Shown: piece after piece, positions 37,376-61,715 of the stretch
How positions within the stretch are numbered: the first letter of the stretch is position 1
How the letters are laid out: every line of letters starts with the position of its first letter
Source of the DNA: a virus
IMG/VR virus record: IMGVR_UViG_3300021959_008125
Span: 21,866 to 85,865 of that record
Reading direction: 5' to 3' (one strand)
DNA length: 64,000 bases
Position numbers and translations under genes: made by a program
The notes under the pieces: generated by a model
What the model saw: only the letters and a program-made list of their open reading frames with translations
The model's database searches: none
Told to the model about the DNA's origin: nothing

Positions 37376-37408
37376 CGTTTGCCTATACGCTTAATAATAC
37401 CTGGCAAA
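37374..37408 (+). ncRNA. Putative H-type pseudoknot cis-regulatory element in the queC leader
   Basis: Stem AGCGT/ACGCT; loop TTGCC pairs with downstream GGCAA; promoter-like TTG-N20-TAACTT just upstream. Confidence 0.45.
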
Positions 37409-37427
37409 TTTTATTAATTATTTTATC

Positions 37428-38246
37428 ATGGCAAAAAATGTCGTAGTTAGTCTTTCAGGAGGGATGGACTCCTCTACTCTTTTACTTAGATGTTTATCTG
37501 AGTATGACAATGTAACAGCTTTATCTTTTGATTACGGTCAAAAGCATAGAGTAGAACTTGAAAGAGCACAGTCTTTAGTAGATTATATTAATGAAAATTG
37601 TACTGACGAAAATTGTTTCGGCGGATGCAGAGTTAACTATCAAGTAATTAAGTTAGATGGCTTAGTTAATCTTTTAAACTCTAACCTTGTAGAAGGTGGA
37701 GAAGATGTACCGGAAGGTCATTATGAAGAAGATAACATGAAAGCAACAGTTGTACCTAATAGAAATAAAATCTTTGCTTCTATCACGCAAGCTGTAGCTT
37801 TATCAGCAGCTAATGCTAACGGTTTAGATACCGATATTGCTTTAGGAATTCATGCCGGTGATCATGCTATCTATCCAGACTGTAGACAAGAGTTTAGAGA
37901 TGCAGACGATAATGCATTTAGAATCGGTAACTGGGATGCAGAAAAAGTAGGTTATTTTACTCCTTACTTAGATACTGATAAATTAGGAATTTTAAAAGAT
38001 GGACAAAAATTGGTTAAAGAGTTGGGAATTGAGTTTAATGAAGTTTACAAACGTACTAATACTTCCTATAAGCCTTTTCCTAGCGGGAATAGTGATTATA
38101 AGTCCGCTTCATCTGTTGAGCGAATCGAGGCGTTTATCAACCTCGGTGTGGATGACCCTGTTCAATACGAGGATGAAACTGGACCGGTTGACTATTCAGT
38201 TGCGAAATCTCATGTTGAAAAGCTTTTAGCAGAACACGCAGCATGA
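37428..38246 (+). CDS. queC: 7-cyano-7-deazaguanine (preQ0) synthase
   Basis: SGGMDS, FDYGQKH..E, VPNRN, HAGDHAIYPDCR. Confidence 0.95.
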   Translation: MAKNVVVSLSGGMDSSTLLLRCLSEYDNVTALSFDYGQKHRVELERAQSLVDYINENCTDENCFGGCRVNYQVIKLDGLVNLLNSNLVEGGEDVPEGHYEEDNMKATVVPNRNKIFASITQAVALSAANANGLDTDIALGIHAGDHAIYPDCRQEFRDADDNAFRIGNWDAEKVGYFTPYLDTDKLGILKDGQKLVKELGIEFNEVYKRTNTSYKPFPSGNSDYKSASSVERIEAFINLGVDDPVQYEDETGPVDYSVAKSHVEKLLAEHAA

Positions 38247-38583: not shown

Positions 38584-38655
38584 GGCCCCTTCGTCTATCG
38601 GTTAGGACGTTAGGTTTTCATCCTAGAAAGAGGAGTTCGATTCTCCTAGGGGCTA
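38584..38655 (+). tRNA. tRNA-Glu (anticodon TTC), CCA not encoded
   Basis: Acceptor GGCCCCT/AGGGGCT; D arm CGTC..GACG; anticodon arm TTAGG-TTTTCAT-CCTAG; T arm AGGAG-TTCGATT-CTCCT. Confidence 0.95.
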
Positions 38656-41168: not shown

Positions 41169-41361
41169 AAGACATATAGCAAAAACTATTTCATGGAGAA
41201 TCATAGGTACTTTAGATACTATGATACTTTCTGCTATTATAACTGGTAGTTGGAAAATAGGGCTCACCATAGGAGGTATAGAAGTTATTACTAAAATGGT
41301 ACTTTACTTTTTGCATGAAAGAGCATGGTATAAGTTTTCTAAATTTGGACTAAAAAAATGA
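41155..41361 (+). CDS. DUF2061 membrane protein
   Basis: KTISWRIIGT...YFLHERAW. Confidence 0.85.
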   Translation: MVSYKRHIAKTISWRIIGTLDTMILSAIITGSWKIGLTIGGIEVITKMVLYFLHERAWYKFSKFGLKK

Positions 41362-43034
41362 TACAATTAGGTATATCAGCATTCTATCACGACGCTGCAG
41401 CATGTATCGTAAAAGACGGTGTAGTAATTGCAGCTGCAGAGGAAGAAAGGTTTACTGAAATTAAACACGATAGCTCTTTTCCGATAAATGCTATTAAATG
41501 GTGTTTAGAATACACAAATTTTAAAATTCAGCATATTGATGAAGTATGTTGGTATGAAAACCCAGAAACTAAAAAAGATAGGGTACTTAAAATATTTAAA
41601 AAACGACCTTTTCGTACATTTTTACTCAAAAGAAAATTTCTAAAAGAATTTGAAGTTAATAACCCAAAGGTACTTTTAGAAGAAATCGGGTATAAAGGTA
41701 AGATTGTATTTACAGAACATCACTTATCACATGCAGCATTTAGTTTTTTAACTAGCCAATATGATGAAGCTGCTATTTTAACTGTGGATGGTGTTGGGGA
41801 GTGGGAAACTATTACTATTTCACATGGTGACGGTACTAAAATCGAGAAAAAATTATCTATAGATTTTCCTAATTCTCTTGGAATGCTTTACTCTACTATA
41901 ACAGCATATTTAGGGTTTAAACCTAACGAAGGTGAATATAAAGTTATGGGGTTAGCACCTTATGGTGATCCTACAAACTATTTTAGCAAATTAGATAAAA
42001 TTTTCACACATACTACCAATAAATTTTGGATAAAACAGAAATACTTTACTTGGGAATATTCCGATAAAGTAATGTTTAATAAAAAATTCTTTAACTTACT
42101 TAAACTACCCCCTCGGCTACCGGAAGATGAACTTACACAGGAACATAAAGATTTAGCAGCAGCATTGCAAAAAATTTATGAAAGAGAATTCTTAAAGTTA
42201 GTAAGAACTGCTAAATTAATAACAGGAAGTAAAAATTTATGTCTAGGTGGAGGTTGCGCTTATAACGGAGTAGCAAATTCTAAAGCATATAAGTATTTTG
42301 AATCTATACATATACCATTTGCACCATCAGATGCTGGTTCTGCGATTGGAGCCTGCTTATATAATTCCAAATCTAAGTTATTGCAAAATAATTCTCCTTA
42401 TTTAGGTCCTGATTATAGTAATAATTATATTTTAAAGTTACTTAAATCATACAGTAGCAGCATTCAATACTTTAAACTATCAGAACAAAAATTACTTGAA
42501 AAAACAGCAGAAATACTAAACAATCAGAACATAGTTGCTTGGTTTCAAGGAAGAATGGAATTTGGAGCAAGAGCCTTAGGTAACAGAAGCATATTAGCTT
42601 CACCTAAAGATGCTAAAATGAGAGAAAAATTAAATTACGTAATTAAAAAAAGAGAAGGATTTAGACCCTTTGCTCCTTCAGTTATAGAAGATAGTGCCTA
42701 TAAGTACTTTCATATTAAGGAACCAGTTCCTTATATGAATCAAGTTGTAAACGCTATAGATTTAGACGGCTTTGCAAGATTTACTAGATTTCCTGCTGCT
42801 ACACATGTGGATAACACATGTAGAGTTCAAACAGTAAATAAAAATTTAAATGAGAGATATTATAAACTTCTTATAGAATTAAAAAGAATATCAGGCTTCC
42901 CTGTAGTACTTAATACTTCGTTTAACTTAAAAGATCAAACTATTACTATGACTCCTAAACAGGCGATAGAAAGGTATTTGAATTCTGAAATTGATTATCT
43001 GGTAATTAATAACTATTTAATAAAAAAGATATGA
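41358..43034 (+). CDS. O-carbamoyltransferase (NodU/CmcH family)
   Basis: HDAAAC, EEERF, HHLSH, DGVGE, EYKVMGLAPYG, EFGARALGNRS, KKREGFRPFAP, NTSFN. Confidence 0.95.
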   Translation: MIQLGISAFYHDAAACIVKDGVVIAAAEEERFTEIKHDSSFPINAIKWCLEYTNFKIQHIDEVCWYENPETKKDRVLKIFKKRPFRTFLLKRKFLKEFEVNNPKVLLEEIGYKGKIVFTEHHLSHAAFSFLTSQYDEAAILTVDGVGEWETITISHGDGTKIEKKLSIDFPNSLGMLYSTITAYLGFKPNEGEYKVMGLAPYGDPTNYFSKLDKIFTHTTNKFWIKQKYFTWEYSDKVMFNKKFFNLLKLPPRLPEDELTQEHKDLAAALQKIYEREFLKLVRTAKLITGSKNLCLGGGCAYNGVANSKAYKYFESIHIPFAPSDAGSAIGACLYNSKSKLLQNNSPYLGPDYSNNYILKLLKSYSSSIQYFKLSEQKLLEKTAEILNNQNIVAWFQGRMEFGARALGNRSILASPKDAKMREKLNYVIKKREGFRPFAPSVIEDSAYKYFHIKEPVPYMNQVVNAIDLDGFARFTRFPAATHVDNTCRVQTVNKNLNERYYKLLIELKRISGFPVVLNTSFNLKDQTITMTPKQAIERYLNSEIDYLVINNYLIKKI

Positions 43035-50456: not shown

Positions 50457-50803
50457 TGAATAATATAGTCGATACATACGAAATTGCCACTGTAGGGCAA
50501 AATTTGTCTAATACCTTTACTTTAGCTTCAAACGGTATATTGATTGATATATTAATAGAAGATCTTGCACCAGTAGTTCCACCAGTAGAGAAGAAAGGTA
50601 AAGCACCTTCAGGTGTAGGGTATAGAGAAGAAAAAGAGGAAATTACCCGTAAAAAAATTACTGTAATTGTCACTTTAAACGGCAAGCAATACAAAGAAAG
50701 TATAATTGTAGAAGATAAACCTGAACTAAAAGTTGAAGATATAAATGTAGATGTTCAAGAGACTCAAAATAAACCAAGAATCCGAATATCTTTTGATATG
50801 TAG
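50456..50803 (+). CDS. Hypothetical protein
   Basis: 115 aa coupled ORF. Confidence 0.6.
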   Translation: MNNIVDTYEIATVGQNLSNTFTLASNGILIDILIEDLAPVVPPVEKKGKAPSGVGYREEKEEITRKKITVIVTLNGKQYKESIIVEDKPELKVEDINVDVQETQNKPRIRISFDM

Positions 50804-50832
50804 TTGGAGAATAAATTAAAAGTTCTTATATT
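50804..50832 (+). promoter_or_regulatory. Bacteroidota-type promoter TTG-N20-TATATT for the queD/queE operon
   Basis: TTG at 50804-50806, TATATT at 50827-50832. Confidence 0.7.
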
Positions 50833-50850
50833 TATATCAATACTGACTAT

Positions 50851-50878
50851 AGTGTCGTAGCACCACTTTAAAAACACA
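50851..50878 (+). ncRNA. Putative class I preQ1 riboswitch aptamer
   Basis: P1 AGTG/CACT, loop TCGTAGCAC, tail TTAAAAACAC; lies upstream of the queD-queE operon; second copy before folE. Confidence 0.75.
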
Positions 50879-50882
50879 TTTT

Positions 50883-51140
50883 ATGAAAACAGAAGAACAA
50901 AGGTTATTAGATGAACTCTATGATGTAGAGACAAGAAGAGTAACCGGTGATAGCACTTCATCACCGTTAACAGCCGACAACTTACAAGACTACCCAGACG
51001 CAAAAAAACACCAAATTGTGTCGTTTATTAAATCAGGAATTAGAATTTTAGGATATTGCTTTATACCTTTCAATTTGGTAATTTCAGCAATTTTACTTAT
51101 ATTATCTGAAATAGTAGGTATAATCGAAGAATTAGTTTAA
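50883..51140 (+). CDS. Small membrane protein heading the queD-queE operon
   Basis: Hydrophobic C-terminus (IRILGYCFIPFNLVISAILLILSEIVGII). Confidence 0.65.
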   Translation: MKTEEQRLLDELYDVETRRVTGDSTSSPLTADNLQDYPDAKKHQIVSFIKSGIRILGYCFIPFNLVISAILLILSEIVGIIEELV

Positions 51141-51143
51141 GTT

Positions 51144-51608
51144 ATGGGAAAATTTCAATCAACAAAAGTATTTGACGGATTCTCTACAGTATTTCGTCAA
51201 TGGAAAGCAGAAACAACACATTGTAAGTATTTACACGGTTACGGAGTATCTTTTAAACTATGGTTTGAAGGAGATCTAGACGAAAGAAATTGGGTATGGG
51301 ACTTTGGCGGTATGAAAAGAGCTAAAGGAAAAATTGACGGTAAGACTCCTAAAGAATGGATGGATTATATGTTTGATCATACCTTTGTAGTAGCTGAAGA
51401 TGATCCGTATCTACAGTCATTTATTAAAATGGATGGTGTAGTAGCTCAAGTAAGAGTTGTTCCTGCAACAGGAGCAGAAAGATTCGCACAGTTTATCTAT
51501 GATAAAATTAATCCTTTTATTGAAGAAGAAACTGAAGGAAGAGTAAAAATTACAAGAGTAGAATTTAGAGAGCACGGTAAAAATTCAGCGATATATGAGC
51601 CTAGGTAG
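51144..51608 (+). CDS. queD: 6-carboxytetrahydropterin synthase
   Basis: C..LHGY, WVWDFG, FDHTF, TGAE, V.F.EH..N.A.Y. Confidence 0.9.
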   Translation: MGKFQSTKVFDGFSTVFRQWKAETTHCKYLHGYGVSFKLWFEGDLDERNWVWDFGGMKRAKGKIDGKTPKEWMDYMFDHTFVVAEDDPYLQSFIKMDGVVAQVRVVPATGAERFAQFIYDKINPFIEEETEGRVKITRVEFREHGKNSAIYEPR

Positions 51609-52371
51609 AATAGAAGATTACGATAAAGGGCTACCTGTAGTAGAAGTTTATACAGCAGTACAGTCAGAAGGAAGTCGTCAAGGTTATCCTACGGTTGTTA
51701 TTAGAACTACCGGATGTACTCACAGATGTTACTTTGGTGAAGGCGGATGGTGTGATAGCTGGTATACCTCTATTCATCCGGAAAAAGGTAAATATACTTT
51801 TAACGACATTATTAAAAAGTATGATGAAAATCCTCATATATCTGAAATGATGCTAACTGGTGGGTCTCCTACAATGCACCCTAAGCTTGTAAATGAATTA
51901 ACTCACTTTGCTCACGAAAGAGGAATCTTTATTACAATAGAAACTGAAGGAAGTCATTTCTTAGAAACAGATTATCCTATTAATCTCTTATCTATTAGTC
52001 CTAAGTTTTCTAATTCTATTCCTAAAATAGGTGTTTTAACCCCTCAAGGTAGAGAAACTAATCAAAAGATGATAGATAAACATAACAGCTTAAGACTTAA
52101 TTTAGATGCTATTAAGAAATCTATAGAATATCACGATGATTATCATATTAAACCAGTATTGGATAAGAACCTAACGATCTATGGGGAGGTATGGAAATTT
52201 CTAGATGAGTTACAAATTCCTAACGATAAAGTATGGTGTATGCCTGCTGGAGATGATAGAGAATCACTGATGGAAAGTTATCCAGTAGTTATGGATTTTG
52301 TGAGAGATAAAGGATATAGATTTACTGGTAGATCCCACATAATGGCATTTGATACACAGAGAGAAGTTTGA
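51595..52371 (+). CDS. queE: 7-carboxy-7-deazaguanine synthase (radical SAM)
   Basis: VQSEG...G.P.V.IRT.GC, CDS, LTGG.P, IETEG, SISPK. Confidence 0.92.
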   Translation: MSLGRIEDYDKGLPVVEVYTAVQSEGSRQGYPTVVIRTTGCTHRCYFGEGGWCDSWYTSIHPEKGKYTFNDIIKKYDENPHISEMMLTGGSPTMHPKLVNELTHFAHERGIFITIETEGSHFLETDYPINLLSISPKFSNSIPKIGVLTPQGRETNQKMIDKHNSLRLNLDAIKKSIEYHDDYHIKPVLDKNLTIYGEVWKFLDELQIPNDKVWCMPAGDDRESLMESYPVVMDFVRDKGYRFTGRSHIMAFDTQREV

Positions 52372-54041: not shown

Positions 54042-56576
54042 ATGTTTAATTTTAATTTATTTATGATGAGAAATCTCATTTTAACTCTGTTAGGTTTACT
54101 AACAGTTGGAGCTTACGCTCAAGAAAGCGCTGTAAATGACACAATCGTTACACAGCAGTTAGAAGAAGTTGTAGTCTCTTCAAGAGTTATTGACGTTGCT
54201 AAAGCACGTGTTACTCCTGTAGCAGTATCAACAATTTCAGCTAGCGACATTTCGTTGAAAGTAGGTAACTTAGAGTTTCCTGAAATCATGAACAGCACAC
54301 CTGGTGTGTATGCTACAAAACAAGGCGGTGGATATGGGGACTCTCGTATCTCATTACGTGGTTTTGATCAGCGTAACACTTCTTTCCTTATCAATGGACA
54401 ACCAGTTAACGATATGGAAAACGGATGGGTGTATTGGTCAAACTGGCAAGGATTAACCGATGTTGCTTCAGGTATCCAAATCCAAAGAGGATTGGGCGCT
54501 TCAAGGTTAGCAGTACCTTCTGTAGGTGGAACAGTATCCATCTTCACAAAAGCTGCAAGTAAAGATGAAGGAGGATCATTTACTCAAGTAATCGGAAATG
54601 ATGGCTACACTAAAACAACAGCAGCCTACAACACCGGTAAAAACGAGAACGGATGGGCAACTTCTGTTTTATTAAGTAAATGGGCTGGAGACGGTTACAT
54701 TTATAATACATCCGGAGAAGGATGGACTTACTTCTTTGCATTAGGATATGCACCAGAAGATTCTAATCACGCTCTTAACTTATCAGTTTTAGGTGCAGGA
54801 CAATGGCACCACCAAAGAGATGTTTGGGTATCTATTAGAGATTACCAAAACTTCGGAGAAGAAGGAATTGATAGAAGATGGAATTCAAATGGTGGAATTT
54901 TAAATGGAGAAGAATATTCTTTAAGAAGAAACTTCTACAACAAACCATTAGCTACATTGAACTGGGATTGGGATATTTCTGAGAACGTTCAATTAAACAC
55001 TTCTTTCTACGCTTCAGCAGGTAGAGGTGGAGGAACAGGACCTAGAGGTAATAACTTTAGAGGTTCAGCAACAGATATCTTACCTTTTAGAAAAGATCTA
55101 ACTGAGCATTACTTAGAAAATGGTAGAGGTTCAAGATTGGCTAATGGATTTATTGATTTTGATGCTATTGTTGCTTCTAACAGAAATACGACTGATCCTT
55201 ATACTGGAGATATTTCTAGATTTGCTGGTCAAAAAATTGGTTCTAATGGATTTAGAGATGATGGAGTAAATAGAGTAGCTTTAATTAGAAGAGCTTCTAT
55301 GAACTCTCATGACTGGGTAGGTGCAATTTCGTCTTTAGATATTACTTCTGGTAATTTTAAATACTCTTTAGGAGTTGATCTTAGAAACTACACTGGGTAT
55401 CATTACCGAGTAGTTAACGATCTATTAGGATTAGATGGTTATTATTCAACAGGTAACAAGAACTCTGCTGGTCAGATTATTGAAACAACAGTTGAAGCAA
55501 ACCCATTCAAGAACACTGGAATTAGAGGACCTAAAATCGACTACTATAATATCGGTAAAGTAGGTTGGCAAGGTGTTAACGGTTTAGTTGAATATAACAA
55601 CTCTACCTTATCTGCAGTATTACAAGCAGGTCTATCTAACCAATCATTCCAAAGAATAGACTACTTTGATCAACCTGGTAATCCAGAATCTGATGTACAA
55701 AATCAAGGAGGAGGATATGTTAAAGGTGGTGCTAACTATAACTTAGATGAAAAATCTAATGTATTCTTTAATGCAGGTTATATCTCTAGACAGCCACAAT
55801 TTGACGCAGTATTCCCTAACTATGCAAATAACATCAATCCAGATCTACAAAACGAAGAAATTCAATCAGTAGAATTTGGGTATGGATTTATTACAAATAA
55901 GTTAAAATTAAACGTAAACGTTTACTCTACAAACTGGGGTAATAGATTTGTTACAAGAAACTTATCTAACCAGCAAGGAGTAGATGGATTCGCACAATTT
56001 AAAGATATCGATGTTACTCACAACGGTATTGAAATTGAAGGAACTTATAGTTTATCTTATAAAACTAAGTTTAAAGGAATGTTATCAATTGGTGACTGGA
56101 CTTATGATCAAAACTTTGAAGCTGAATTATTTGACGATAATCAGCAATCAATCGGTACTGGAACTCTTTATACTAAAGGAGCTAAAGTTGGTGATGCAGC
56201 ACAATTCGTTGCTAACCTAGCAGTTGATCAAAACTTAGGAAGATTAGGTAAGTTAGATCTTAACTATAGATTCGTAGATGGTTTATATGCTGACTACTCG
56301 ATTACAGATTCAGCATTTACTTCACCAGATAACGATGGTGCGTTAAAACTACCTTCTTACGGTATTGTAGACCTAGGATATACAAAATACTTCGGAAGTA
56401 AATTAAGCTTCAGAGCGAATGTAAATAACGTGTTAGACACAACTTATATTGCTGAGTCTAACTCTAATATTCATGCAGGAGCAGGCTCAACTACATGGAA
56501 TGGAATCGATGTAAGAAACTCAGTATGGTTCGGATTTGGAAGAACTTTCAATGCGTCTCTTAAATATAGATTCTAA
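54042..56576 (+). CDS. TonB-dependent outer-membrane receptor
   Basis: Signal peptide (likely start 54063), TonB box LEEVVV, plug TPGVY/SLRGF/LINGQP/IQRG, C-terminal GRTFNASLKYRF. Confidence 0.95.
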   Translation: MFNFNLFMMRNLILTLLGLLTVGAYAQESAVNDTIVTQQLEEVVVSSRVIDVAKARVTPVAVSTISASDISLKVGNLEFPEIMNSTPGVYATKQGGGYGDSRISLRGFDQRNTSFLINGQPVNDMENGWVYWSNWQGLTDVASGIQIQRGLGASRLAVPSVGGTVSIFTKAASKDEGGSFTQVIGNDGYTKTTAAYNTGKNENGWATSVLLSKWAGDGYIYNTSGEGWTYFFALGYAPEDSNHALNLSVLGAGQWHHQRDVWVSIRDYQNFGEEGIDRRWNSNGGILNGEEYSLRRNFYNKPLATLNWDWDISENVQLNTSFYASAGRGGGTGPRGNNFRGSATDILPFRKDLTEHYLENGRGSRLANGFIDFDAIVASNRNTTDPYTGDISRFAGQKIGSNGFRDDGVNRVALIRRASMNSHDWVGAISSLDITSGNFKYSLGVDLRNYTGYHYRVVNDLLGLDGYYSTGNKNSAGQIIETTVEANPFKNTGIRGPKIDYYNIGKVGWQGVNGLVEYNNSTLSAVLQAGLSNQSFQRIDYFDQPGNPESDVQNQGGGYVKGGANYNLDEKSNVFFNAGYISRQPQFDAVFPNYANNINPDLQNEEIQSVEFGYGFITNKLKLNVNVYSTNWGNRFVTRNLSNQQGVDGFAQFKDIDVTHNGIEIEGTYSLSYKTKFKGMLSIGDWTYDQNFEAELFDDNQQSIGTGTLYTKGAKVGDAAQFVANLAVDQNLGRLGKLDLNYRFVDGLYADYSITDSAFTSPDNDGALKLPSYGIVDLGYTKYFGSKLSFRANVNNVLDTTYIAESNSNIHAGAGSTTWNGIDVRNSVWFGFGRTFNASLKYRF

Positions 56577-57073: not shown

Positions 57074-57086
57074 GTATAATGGTTAT

Positions 57087-57116
57087 GAGTGTCGTAGAAC
57101 CACTTTAAAAAACAAT
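57087..57116 (+). ncRNA. Putative class I preQ1 riboswitch aptamer
   Basis: P1 GAGTG/CACTT, loop TCGTAGAAC, tail TAAAAAACAA, a few nt from the folE ATG. Confidence 0.78.
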
Positions 57117-57118
57117 TA

Positions 57119-57787
57119 ATGAGTAAAGATTTAGAATTAGTAAAAGTAGGTTATGCCAACGGAGTTGCTCCTGGCTTTCCTCTAACAGAAGATGAAAAAT
57201 GGAAAATGGTCGAACTAGCGGCTGAAAAGTATGGAGAGTTTCTCGATGCTTTAGGTTGTGATTGGCGTAATGATCCTAATTCGGCTGATACTCCTAGAAG
57301 AGTAGCTAAAGCCTATGCATTCGATCTATGGAAAGGTAGATACGATGCTATGACTGATATAACAGCATTTCCTTCTGACGGTTATAACGGAATCGTTCAG
57401 GAGTCTAATATCCCGGTGACATCGATGTGTAGCCATCACCATCAGACTATTGGTGGTCGTGTGAGTATCGCTTATGTACCGTCTGAGAATGGTAAAGTAG
57501 TAGGTCTGTCTAAACTCAACCGAATCGTCGAGCATTTCGGTAGAAGAGGTGCTATACAAGAGCAGCTTACTGTAGCCATTCATAATGCAATCGATAAGAT
57601 TTGCGAAGGTAACTTAGGTGTAGCGGTAATGATCGATGCTACCCATAACTGTGTTAGCTGTAGAGGTGTTAAACATCACGGTGCTTCAATGCAAACAGCT
57701 AAACTATCAGGATGCTTCTTAAATGAAGATTCAGCGAGAGCGGAGTTTTACAAGAATATTGAACTAGCAGGAAAATGCAGATCGTAG
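57119..57787 (+). CDS. folE: GTP cyclohydrolase I
   Basis: TPRRVAK, SMCSHH, GLSKLNR, IQEQLT, H.CVSCRGV. Confidence 0.97.
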   Translation: MSKDLELVKVGYANGVAPGFPLTEDEKWKMVELAAEKYGEFLDALGCDWRNDPNSADTPRRVAKAYAFDLWKGRYDAMTDITAFPSDGYNGIVQESNIPVTSMCSHHHQTIGGRVSIAYVPSENGKVVGLSKLNRIVEHFGRRGAIQEQLTVAIHNAIDKICEGNLGVAVMIDATHNCVSCRGVKHHGASMQTAKLSGCFLNEDSARAEFYKNIELAGKCRS

Positions 57788-58765: not shown

Positions 58766-58935
58766 TTAATTTAGATGAACATAAAGTTTACGTAGAGAGT
58801 CATAAAATGGATATGATTCCATATTCAGTTGCTAAACAAGCTGTGCAAGAAGCTTACAATAATGCTGAACAAGTAGAGACTTCATTAAATGATATCATAA
58901 AAGCTTTTAATAAATTAAATTCATTAGATGATTAA
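58762..58935 (+). CDS. Small hypothetical protein (57 aa, not in ORF track)
   Basis: MINLDEHK...; overlaps both neighbours. Confidence 0.55.
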   Translation: MINLDEHKVYVESHKMDMIPYSVAKQAVQEAYNNAEQVETSLNDIIKAFNKLNSLDD

Positions 58936-59755
58936 AATAGCACACGAAGCTCCTATAGATATCTTTGAAGAAGTTCAGAGATTTACAGATTACGATTATG
59001 CTTTAGTTCATTTGCTTGAACAAAATTCTAGATATAGAGATACTTTTGAAAGAGTTATTAAAAAAGGTAGAGAAGTTATTTTAGATAATTCTATCTTTGA
59101 GTTAGAAGAAGCTTTTGAAGCTGATAGATTTGATCAGTGGATTAATAGACTTAAGCCGTACTGGTATATCGTTCCTGATGCATTAGAAGATGCAGAAAAA
59201 ACTATGCGTCAAATGCAAGACTGGAATGATAAAGGATACGGGTATAAAGGTAGCTGTAAGATAGGTGTTGTTCAAGGTAAGACTTATGATGAGATTGTTG
59301 ACTGTTATAACTTTATGAATGAACCTCAACAGGATGTAGATATGATTGCTATATCTTTTGACTATTCGTATTATACTGTATCTGTCCCTCATCCTAACAA
59401 ATATGTAAGTTGGATGCTTGGTAGAGTTAAACTCTTAGGAGACCTATTGAGAGACGGTGTGATAAACACTGAAAAGAAGCATCACCTATTAGGTTGCGGA
59501 TTACCTCAAGAATTTAGTTTTTATAAGCATTCAGATTATAATTGGATCTATTCTTTAGATACTTCTAACCCTATAGTACATGCTATAAAAGGCATAGAAT
59601 ATACCGATCAAGGATTATGGAACAAAGAATCTCAAAAGCTACATGAGCTTATCGATTATGATATTGATAAAATTGATTTGTCTTTAATGAAGACTAATTT
59701 GGTTAAATTTAGATGGTTTACAAATGGAGAAACGCCAGTGGGTAGCATACTTTAG
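58928..59755 (+). CDS. dpdA: TGT-fold 7-deazaguanine transglycosylase-like protein (DpdA family)
   Basis: ILDNS, VPD, GVVQG, HHLLG, SLDTS motifs; located in the que gene cluster. Confidence 0.75.
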   Translation: MIKIAHEAPIDIFEEVQRFTDYDYALVHLLEQNSRYRDTFERVIKKGREVILDNSIFELEEAFEADRFDQWINRLKPYWYIVPDALEDAEKTMRQMQDWNDKGYGYKGSCKIGVVQGKTYDEIVDCYNFMNEPQQDVDMIAISFDYSYYTVSVPHPNKYVSWMLGRVKLLGDLLRDGVINTEKKHHLLGCGLPQEFSFYKHSDYNWIYSLDTSNPIVHAIKGIEYTDQGLWNKESQKLHELIDYDIDKIDLSLMKTNLVKFRWFTNGETPVGSIL

Positions 59756-60269
59756 TCAGACAGGAGCTGAAATAGCTGATATTTGCGAGTCTATCGGTAG
59801 ATGGCCTACTCGCATTATTACTAATAAAAGACCTAAGCACTTAAGAACCATAGATCCTAGAATTACTCAGCATGGTTATTTAGAAATGTCTAATAAACCA
59901 ACCTTTAATGAATATCATGAAATACTTCAATATTTAAATGATCCTATTATTACTTTACATGGATGGCTAAGAATAATGCCTCCTGGAGTTTGTGATGCGT
60001 TTGAAATTTTTAATGGTCATCCCGGACTAATTACTAAGTATCCAGAACTTAAAGGTAAAGATCCTCAAGTAAAAGCTTTTTCAGCTCAATATAAAGAGAT
60101 TGGTTCTGTTATACATAAAGTAGATGCAGGAGTAGACGAAGGTCCTGTATTAGCAGAATCGAGTATTTTTATTGGCGGATTCAGTTTAGAGGATTATTAT
60201 AAAGAACTTAAGATATTAAGTTTAGAACTTTGGGAAGATTTCTTGAGAGAACGTTTAAATATCGAGTAA
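59724..60269 (+). CDS. PurN-like formyltransferase, candidate preQ1 formyltransferase (DpdN-like)
   Basis: FSQTG, LHGWLRI, NGHPGL, G.VIH.VD.GVDEGPV; overlaps the dpdA-like gene. Confidence 0.8.
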   Translation: MEKRQWVAYFSQTGAEIADICESIGRWPTRIITNKRPKHLRTIDPRITQHGYLEMSNKPTFNEYHEILQYLNDPIITLHGWLRIMPPGVCDAFEIFNGHPGLITKYPELKGKDPQVKAFSAQYKEIGSVIHKVDAGVDEGPVLAESSIFIGGFSLEDYYKELKILSLELWEDFLRERLNIE

Positions 60270-60288
60270 TTTTTCGTATATTATTATT

Positions 60289-60807
60289 ATGGTAAAAAGA
60301 ATAGCATTAGTTGGAGCAAGTAGTACAGGTAAAACAACTGTTTATGAATTACTTAAGACTAAGCTACCTAAGTATGAATTTGTAAACGAATCTACTAGAA
60401 CAGTAGGTAATTATGGTTTTCCTATTAATGAGGCTGGTACTTCTGAAACTCAATTAGCTATCAGTAGCTTCCATTTAGAAGCATTACTACAACCTTATAA
60501 TCTTGTATTAGACAGATGTTATATGGATCTAGTAGCATACTCTAGATTCATGCCTAATATAAGCAAAGAGACGTTAAAATATATCTTAGATACATGGCAA
60601 AGGGTTAAAAATGAATATACTCATTATGTATATTTTCCTATCGAATTCGACTCTGTTGATGATGGAGTTAGAAGTATTGACGAGCAGTGGAGAAAAGATA
60701 TAGATGATGAGTTTTTTGAGATGCTGCAAGATGTAAGACAACCTTACTTATCTGTTACAGGATCTCCTATGCAAAGAGTAGAACAAATATTAGAATTTAT
60801 AAAATGA
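60289..60807 (+). CDS. P-loop nucleotide kinase (AAA_28/NadR-like, candidate dNMP kinase)
   Basis: GASSTGKTT, E..R, DRC..D, DDGVR, G....R. Confidence 0.75.
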   Translation: MVKRIALVGASSTGKTTVYELLKTKLPKYEFVNESTRTVGNYGFPINEAGTSETQLAISSFHLEALLQPYNLVLDRCYMDLVAYSRFMPNISKETLKYILDTWQRVKNEYTHYVYFPIEFDSVDDGVRSIDEQWRKDIDDEFFEMLQDVRQPYLSVTGSPMQRVEQILEFIK

Positions 60808-61715
60808 GTGAAGTTAAAAATTACCAAGAAGTAGTAGAGATTGCATCAAAGCACTTAGGACAAGTCGGAGGAGCTGGTTATTCAGATCAATACAATCCTG
60901 AACTACTAGTAAAAGTTCCTAGATACTTAAACAGAGAGGGTTATGGTTTAACATCAGATAGTTTTTTAGGTGTGGATACCTGGAACTGTTACGAAGTATC
61001 AGCGATTACTACCAAAGGTCAGCCTGTTGCCGGAATGCTTAAAATTGTATGTCCTGCAGATTCGGAGTTTCACGTAGAATCTAAGTCAATTAAGTTATAT
61101 TTAAACTCTTTTAATATGACTCAGATTGGCGATAATGCTGCTGATTGTATTAAAGCTATAGAAGCTACAGTTAAAAGAGATTTAGATGAATTATTAGAAA
61201 CTAATACTACAGTTTCATTTTATGCTTCTAATGATGAAGGTGAGGCTCTATCTTTTGAAGGATATCAAGATTTAGGAGATGTTGTAGATTTAGACCAAAT
61301 AGATTTTACCGCATTTAAGTCTGATGCTTCTCAGTTAATGGTTGAAGATACTGATGATGAAGCTAAAGTAATTAAATTTAAATCTAATCTACTTAGATCT
61401 AATTGTAGAGTTACTAATCAACCAGATTGGGGTGATGTATTTATCTACTTAAAAGGAAAAAAACTACCTGCAGCAGATTCGTTAGCAAAATATATAGTAA
61501 GTCATAGAACAGTAAGTCATTTTCATGAAGAAATATGCGAGATGGTTTACAAACATATATCAGATGCATATGAACCTGAGCAGTTAATGGTTGCTTGTCT
61601 TTATACTAGAAGAGGAGGTTTAGATATTAATCCGATTAGAGCATCTCATTCTATGCTAATACCAGAATTTTTTATTAATCCTGATTATAGAATTACTAAA
61701 ACTTTAAGACAGTAA
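60804..61715 (+). CDS. queF: preQ0 nitrile reductase (bimodular QueF)
   Basis: D.W..YE.S, ESKSIKLYLNS, LRSNCRVTNQPDWG, FHEE, YTRRGGLDINP. Confidence 0.95.
   Translation: MSEVKNYQEVVEIASKHLGQVGGAGYSDQYNPELLVKVPRYLNREGYGLTSDSFLGVDTWNCYEVSAITTKGQPVAGMLKIVCPADSEFHVESKSIKLYLNSFNMTQIGDNAADCIKAIEATVKRDLDELLETNTTVSFYASNDEGEALSFEGYQDLGDVVDLDQIDFTAFKSDASQLMVEDTDDEAKVIKFKSNLLRSNCRVTNQPDWGDVFIYLKGKKLPAADSLAKYIVSHRTVSHFHEEICEMVYKHISDAYEPEQLMVACLYTRRGGLDINPIRASHSMLIPEFFINPDYRITKTLRQ

Follow-up and report, generated by a model that had tools for sequence, protein, structure and literature searches.

In bacteria, preQ1 riboswitches are known to regulate tRNA-queuosine genes. Can a phage carry such an RNA over the genes that build a modified base for its own DNA? 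The question is raised by a short leader in the window, by which we mean the whole 64,000-nt stretch of DNA analysed here, part of an 85.9-kb virus record. The record is that of a tailed phage, encoding a tail sheath and a ribonucleotide reductase, and among cultured phages Flavobacterium phage vB_FspM_immuto (immuto) is the closest to it. The original prediction had read the leader as a class I preQ1-type aptamer in front of phage deazaguanine genes, able to fold over the translation initiation region.

Re-reading the sequence confirmed the predicted layout, in which AGTG, a loop, CACT and a tail are set between a TTG-N20-TATATT promoter and the ATG at 50883. The promoter-like element resembles the Bacteroidetes -33/-7 type, with its transcription start unmapped, and in relatives a TA[TC][AC]TT box occurs 12-26 nt 5' of the stem at variable spacing. 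The element itself (copy A) is compact, comprising a 4-bp stem (P1), a 9-nt loop, an A-rich L3 of 6-9 nt and a tail C within ~28 nt; its L2 is 3 nt long. No terminator was found 3' of the element. P1 alone is weak, at about -1 kcal/mol, and is absent from the predicted minimum-free-energy fold of the copy A leader. That fold is an upstream hairpin, TAC-t-GAC/GTC-GTA (50841-50859, -3.7 kcal/mol), to which the original prediction had given a role mutually exclusive with the aptamer. The hairpin can indeed be drawn, but it is neither significant nor conserved: 141 of 200 shuffled sequences fold at least as well (z +0.58), the 5' arm is not kept among relatives, and the GAC arm is found in ~40% of copies. 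Nor was this competing hairpin adopted after a comparison of 5' flanks across copies, in which real flanks folded with the aptamer only a little better than shuffled ones (mean z -0.69; p <= 0.05 in 16% of cases).

The phage encodes a full deazaguanine pathway, including a DpdA3-like transglycosylase and a DpdN-like formyltransferase (Table 1). The element had been placed in the leader of a queD-queE operon; it does sit in the operon leader, but the first gene is orf85, with queD following from 51144. The function of the orf85 product, which has a hydrophobic C-terminal half, is unknown, and Pfam and PHROG searches with it gave no match. The ORF occupies the same position in most relatives; in some others the aptamer lies directly before queD (L041, L069) or queE (L100) rather than before orf85. 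The gap between orf85 and queD is 3 nt, and queD and queE overlap, from which we infer that coupling could pass repression on. At the DNA level, queD and queE are 73% identical to their immuto counterparts. Every G in immuto DNA is replaced by formyl-dPreQ1 (fdPreQ1) (Cui et al. 2023, PMC10516641); riboswitches go unmentioned in that study. The deazaguanine gene block also contains a TonB-dependent receptor-like ORF of 844 aa with Plug and beta-barrel domains, an outer-membrane receptor gene unusual for a phage, which shows 78-82% amino-acid conservation across related phage contigs. Two further phage genes lie elsewhere, one for a tRNA (54.8 bits) and one, an auxiliary metabolic gene, for a Nol-like carbamoyltransferase.

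A second copy of the element (copy B) lies 6 nt 5' of the ATG of folE and reads, in DNA letters, AGTG-TCGTAGAAC-CACT-TTAAAAAAC. The 24-nt core AGTGTCGTAGNACCACTTTAAAAA occurs at exactly two sites in the window (50851 and 57088) and at none in 100 shuffles. Across the whole 85.9-kb record, a model of the 28-nt element likewise finds two sites only, copies A and B, one before orf85-queD-queE and the other before folE. No aptamer copy was found at queC, whose leader was read over 37376-37427, or at queF.

Table 1. Features of the phage locus, numbered from the first position of the window.
Feature	Position	Strand	Description
Promoter-like element	50804..50834	+	TTG (50804-50806), 20-nt spacer, TATATTTA (50827-50834); TATATT box at 50827-50832
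Copy A, P1 5' strand	50851-50854	+	AGUG (AGTG in DNA); pairs with 50864-50867
Copy A, loop	50855-50863	+	UCGUAGCAC (RNA), TCGTAGCAC (DNA); 9 nt
Copy A, L1 U	50855	+	U50855; class I contacts in PMC11625349
Copy A, ceiling bases	50856, 50860	+	C50856 and G50860; class I contacts in PMC11625349
Copy A, presumed ligand-pairing (specificity) C	50863	+	C50863; class I contacts in PMC11625349
Copy A, P1 3' strand	50864-50867	+	CACU (CACT in DNA); pairs with 50851-50854
Copy A, tail	50868-50878	+	L3 UUAAAAA (50868-50874), then CACA (50875-50878)
Copy A, presumed P2 partner of G50860	50875	+	C50875
orf85	50883..51140	+	85 aa; first gene behind copy A
queD	51144..51608	+	6-carboxytetrahydropterin synthase, PTPS fold; PF01242, E 1.3e-14
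queE	51595..52371	+	Radical SAM 7-carboxy-7-deazaguanine synthase; PF04055; QueE annotation in relatives
Copy B	57088..57116	+	AGUG-UCGUAGAAC-CACU-UUAAAAAA-CAAU; specificity C 57100, tail C 57113
folE	57119..57787	+	GTP cyclohydrolase I, first pathway step; PF01227, E 1.3e-43; directly 3' of copy B
Downstream pathway genes (block)	58928..61715	+	Pfam
DpdA3-like transglycosylase	58928-59755	+	68% aa identity to immuto DpdA
DpdN-like formyltransferase	59724-60269	+	57% aa identity to immuto formyltransferase
AAA_28	60289-60807	+	Pfam
QueF	60804-61715	+	Pfam
queC	37428..38246	+	PF06508, E 2.3e-39
TonB-dependent receptor-like ORF	54042-56576		Plug and beta-barrel domains
tRNA	38584-38655		
Nol-like carbamoyltransferase	41358-43034		

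The element was found again in dozens of related phage contigs. An open scan of viral contigs used a loop-plus-tail pattern with P1 left free. Of the matches with a pathway gene directly 3', the start of orf85, QueD, QueE or FolE lying within 16-24 nt, 43/43 had a 4-bp P1. Such a gene followed 0/72 of the matches without P1, and 0/10 of a remainder that paired yet belonged to an unrelated coding repeat (eight), a chance match (one) or a contig end (one). A covariance model of the element (R1), applied to loci picked by protein alone, matched 30 FolE loci and 39 QueD loci, out of 80 for each protein, and always immediately 5' of the gene. The phage copies thus far recovered always precede orf85-queD, queD, queE or folE. 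Many related phages have no element before folE, among them the closest FolE relatives, and so it is dispensable and is gained and lost as a module. In the two contigs with the most similar FolE (L127 and L128, 87-88% aa), the folE aptamer is absent from the ~110 nt upstream of folE, with the PRTase-folE junction still alignable; one of the two, the same contig as L327, retains a queD copy. An R1 match in Cellulophaga phage phiST (L008 1019-1058) was discarded as a terminator-like hairpin without the motif, and no copy was found in the 9-kb stretch of phiST examined. Another phage folE leader (L199 1425-1476), which RF00522 does not match, looks related yet differs in its 7-bp P1, GAUGGUG/CACCGUC, in its loop UCGUAGUUC with UC as the last two bases, and in a long tail that carries AAGGA before the ATG.

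Covariation among relatives had been named as a check on the original prediction, which would be refuted if relatives lacked P1 and the loop C. We aligned 54 distinct sequences, pre-filtered for pairing; the unfiltered counterpart is the 43/43 paired in the open scan. P1 occurs in six versions with compensatory changes: AGUG/CACU in 39 of the 54 sequences, UGAG/CUCA in seven, GGUG/CACC in three, GGAG/CUCC and UGUG/CACA in two each, and CCUG/CAGG in one. Both-sided changes are seen at three of the four pairs, while the top pair, G50854-C50864, is GC in 54/54. The covariation score for P1 is 0.385, against 0.062 in shuffles (54 pairing-selected rows); in the relative L165, the outer pair is replaced by an A.A mismatch. 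In the immuto folE leader, GGAG-TCGTAGAAC-CTCC-ATAAAAAC, the loop is that of copy B and two of the stem pairs are changed, each with compensation on the opposite strand. Because the relatives are closely related to one another, the independent compensatory events are few, an estimated six or so.

While P1 varies, there is no change in the loop UCGUAGNAC or in the tail AAAAAC. Five loop bases (U, A, G, A and C, the last being C50863) are the same in 54/54, so that P1 and the loop C are both kept and the outcome named as refuting did not arise; C50856 is retained in 52/54. The loop variants are UCGUAG[C/A/U]AC, UCACAG[C/U]AC and UUGAAGCAC. L3 is 7 nt in 44/54, every copy has a run of at least four A residues followed by C, and this tail C mostly lies 6-9 nt 5' of the ATG. 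For P2, G50860 and C50875 can pair and are both invariant, with a second pair (loop position 4 with tail position +3) possible in only 40/54. Because P2 rests on this one invariant G-C and the second pair is so limited, the pseudoknot is not shown by covariation. Taken as comparative sequence evidence, these features identify a conserved, structured leader element.

The invariant positions can be set against the pocket of class I preQ1 riboswitches. There, a specificity C lies just 5' of the P1 3' strand, with an A before it in type II, and further contacts come from U6 in L1, one L3 adenine and a C7-G11-C30 ceiling; the floor is a G-C pair, in which O6 of the G reaches the ligand's aminomethyl group (PMC11625349). 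The counterparts here are C50863 (with A50862), U50855, A50874, C50856-G50860-C50875 and G50854-C50864, all invariant or nearly so. A50862 and C50863, which make up the type II signature 'AC', are each invariant in 54/54. An alternative internal hairpin, GUGU-CGUA-GCAC, is possible at 50852-50863 and also in relatives with 'CAC' loops; it is formable in queD-type copies, not in 'AAC' folE-type copies. Such a hairpin would sequester the specificity C and the ceiling G, and could be a ligand-free conformer.

A search with the Rfam PreQ1 model (RF00522), the other computational check that had been named, gave no support for copy A, which was unmatched at the gathering score (39 bits) in the window and at E <= 10 over 50700-51000; nor is it among the six sub-threshold RF00522 matches in the record. 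The best of those six is copy B (17 bits, E 0.03, window 57083-57121). No Rfam family ranks above RF00522 for copy B, and the alignment runs end to end, with a P1 pair, three positions in the loop and one in the tail deleted. As copy B aligns over its full length and the model penalises deletions, we do not take the miss of copy A as a refutation. A bacterial copy, from Thalassospira, is also unmatched by RF00522 (E <= 10), pointing to a blind spot whereby the current PreQ1 model overlooks the element in phages and Thalassospira alike.

In the Thalassospira genome, CCUG-UCGUAGCAC-CAGG-UUAAAAACACG is located directly 5' of queC-queD-queE, and the element is therefore not phage-only. Among 151 genomes of the order, 10 species-level genomes share an identical 28-mer, each time before queC (88-100% aa identity), and the flanks vary. 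Since the Thalassospira enzymes are only ~30% identical to those of the phage, the shared aptamer reflects functional constraint or an independent transfer of the RNA, rather than an operon that moved recently. No further copy was detected in the other genomes sampled from the class of Thalassospira, and the phage form was absent from 151 Flavobacteriaceae genomes and from 151 Bacteroidota genomes sampled. R1 matches in the Flavobacteriaceae set (23-28 bits) were rejected as A-rich leaders without the loop, and a canonical PreQ1 element was present in 1 of these 151 genomes (L424). In a bacterial pattern scan, among the matches listed, most were chance matches, and the distribution of P1 pairing was random except in Thalassospira.

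The bacterial copies bear on what the RNA might bind. The same fold could recognise a plain purine or another 7-deazapurine, such as preQ0, CDG or the formyl-preQ1 that the phage formyltransferase produces, and so sense a different point of the pathway. The aptamer is shorter than any characterised preQ1-I aptamer (L2 of 3 nt, P1 of 4 bp), preQ1 is further formylated in this phage, as it is in immuto, and for type II aptamers preQ0 is almost as good a ligand as preQ1, all of which lend this some weight. Against it, none of the alpha-mode contact positions is lost, not even the floor G, the base that touches the aminomethyl group through its O6. An identical loop and tail, moreover, stand before queCDE in Thalassospira, with no formyltransferase among the first four ORFs of the operon, and this classical queuosine context argues for preQ1 or preQ0 as the ligand and against a phage-specific one. 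We consider a switch to some other ligand unlikely, without discounting it; preQ1 or preQ0 is the likely ligand, in the absence of binding data.

A protein could in principle take the place of a metabolite, with the element serving as an operator for a phage RNA- or DNA-binding protein, either as a translational repressor site or as a palindromic DNA site. The short inverted repeat beside a promoter and a start codon would suit such a role, P1 is weak by itself, and ligand binding is undemonstrated. Yet it is the stem that covaries, and the loop and the asymmetric A-rich tail that are fixed. At least eight contigs carry two copies with differing P1 and an identical loop core, and such different stems within one genome argue against a sequence-specific stem-binding protein. 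The invariant positions also coincide with those of preQ1-I, and outside any phage context the element is present in a bacterium whose enzymes are unrelated, leaving an operator a distinctly improbable explanation. Weakest of all, and largely refuted, is an ordinary A/T-rich leader beside a conserved promoter, shared through recent common descent and like preQ1-I by coincidence: copy A has no Rfam call, its fold energy is no better than that of shuffles and A-rich leaders are usual in Bacteroidetes, but the flanks diverge around a fixed 28-mer, the promoter spacing ranges over 12-26 nt, P1 shows compensatory changes, only two sites occur in the genome, the link to the pathway is exclusive (43/43) and the element precedes queC in Thalassospira.

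We thus favour a compact class I, type II-like preQ1 riboswitch that acts as a translational off-switch on folE and orf85-queD-queE, a reading to which we give a probability of about 0.75, with ligand binding, the pseudoknot and regulation all inferred. The core of the original prediction is upheld by the folE copy, the compensation in P1, the invariant loop and tail, the restriction to queD, queE and folE leaders in phages, and the bacterial queCDE copy. A fuller proposal is that the two ~28-nt aptamers gauge free preQ1 or preQ0 and brake FolE, QueD and QueE without a Shine-Dalgarno sequence, forming a distinct, unannotated subtype found also in a marine alphaproteobacterium; this we hold with less assurance, at somewhat better than even.

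Bacteroidetes lack Shine-Dalgarno sequences, and mRNA structure tunes their initiation (Baez et al. 2019, PMC6847099). For the riboswitch proposed here, transcription from the phage promoter would yield a short leader of ~40 nt. Without ligand, the weak P1 would be open and the A-rich stretch before the AUG single-stranded, which would suit the Shine-Dalgarno-less, structure-sensitive initiation of Bacteroidota. As free preQ1 (or preQ0) accumulates, it would pair with C50863 and stack on the G50854-C50864 floor, its edge being read by U50855 and the last L3 adenine and its cap provided by the layer formed by C50856, G50860 and C50875. The L3 adenines would dock along P1, giving an H-type pseudoknot that ends 5 nt 5' of the AUG and may block loading of the 30S subunit. 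Synthesis of FolE, QueD and QueE, which lead from GTP to CDG, would then fall, providing a feedback brake on the GTP drain that comes with replacing G by a preQ1 derivative.

If correct, this would place a viral DNA-hypermodification (anti-restriction) pathway under riboswitch control, with a phage balancing a costly GTP drain through a metabolite-sensing RNA. It would also provide an expression platform independent of the Shine-Dalgarno sequence, and hence riboswitch function in hosts that ignore this signal. Should preQ1 be bound, the lower size limit of a natural aptamer would move to ~28 nt. The hypothesis is directly testable, as a cultured relative exists in Flavobacterium phage immuto, which grows on Flavobacterium sp. 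LMO8. Our literature search found no paper linking a riboswitch to phage deazaguanine or DpdA pathways, and the preQ1 review PMC11625349 does not mention phages.

Among known systems, the element most readily compares with preQ1-I type II (RF00522), as in Thermoanaerobacter tengcongensis and Bacillus subtilis queC. Both have a hairpin and an A-rich 3' tail that could pair into an H-type pseudoknot (inferred for the phage element), and an 'AC' immediately 5' of the P1 3' strand, in which C is the specificity base. They also share a U at the start of the loop, a G-C floor, and the C...G loop bases and tail C from which the ceiling triple is built in the class. Both occupy leaders of preQ1 synthesis genes, here near the start codon, an arrangement also found in the translational Tte switch (PMC11625349). 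The phage element differs in having a P1 of 4 rather than 5 bp, a loop of 9 nt against 12 Rfam consensus positions, a total of ~28 against 34 nt, an L3 of 6-9 nt, a score far under the Rfam cut-off and a tail without a Shine-Dalgarno sequence. It is also phage-encoded and stands over DNA-base synthesis rather than tRNA queuosine. The mini-aptamer is smaller than any preQ1-I aptamer in the review PMC11625349.

Two bacterial RNAs frame the phage element further. The canonical preQ1-I of the Flavobacteriaceae genome L424 (RF00522, 50 bits), which comes from the likely host family of the phage and precedes a 216-aa ORF, would belong to the same class and likewise lies in a short leader ending a few bases before the ATG. 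Unlike the phage element, it has a P1 of 5-6 bp, a 12-nt loop UUCGCAAUUCUC ending in UC (the type I signature) and a tail with CUAAG. The Thalassospira-type mini-aptamer (L238, L425-L434) is closer, with the loop UCGUAGCAC and tail UUAAAAACACG identical to those of the phage, a 4-bp P1 and the same dimensions; it differs in its CCUG/CAGG stem, its chromosomal location, its classical queuosine operon and the ~20 nt that separate it from the ATG. The Thalassospira leaders, unlike those of the phage, have an additional hairpin just 5' of the mini-aptamer, at ~40 nt upstream (L425-L434), with a stem that covaries between species (GGAAGG.../GAAGCG.../GGAACG...). Lastly, the glutamine riboswitches of cyanophages are a case of a phage-borne, metabolite-sensing RNA over an auxiliary metabolic gene. 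The phage element differs from these in its proposed ligand and fold, and the pathway over which it stands feeds a hypermodified DNA base.
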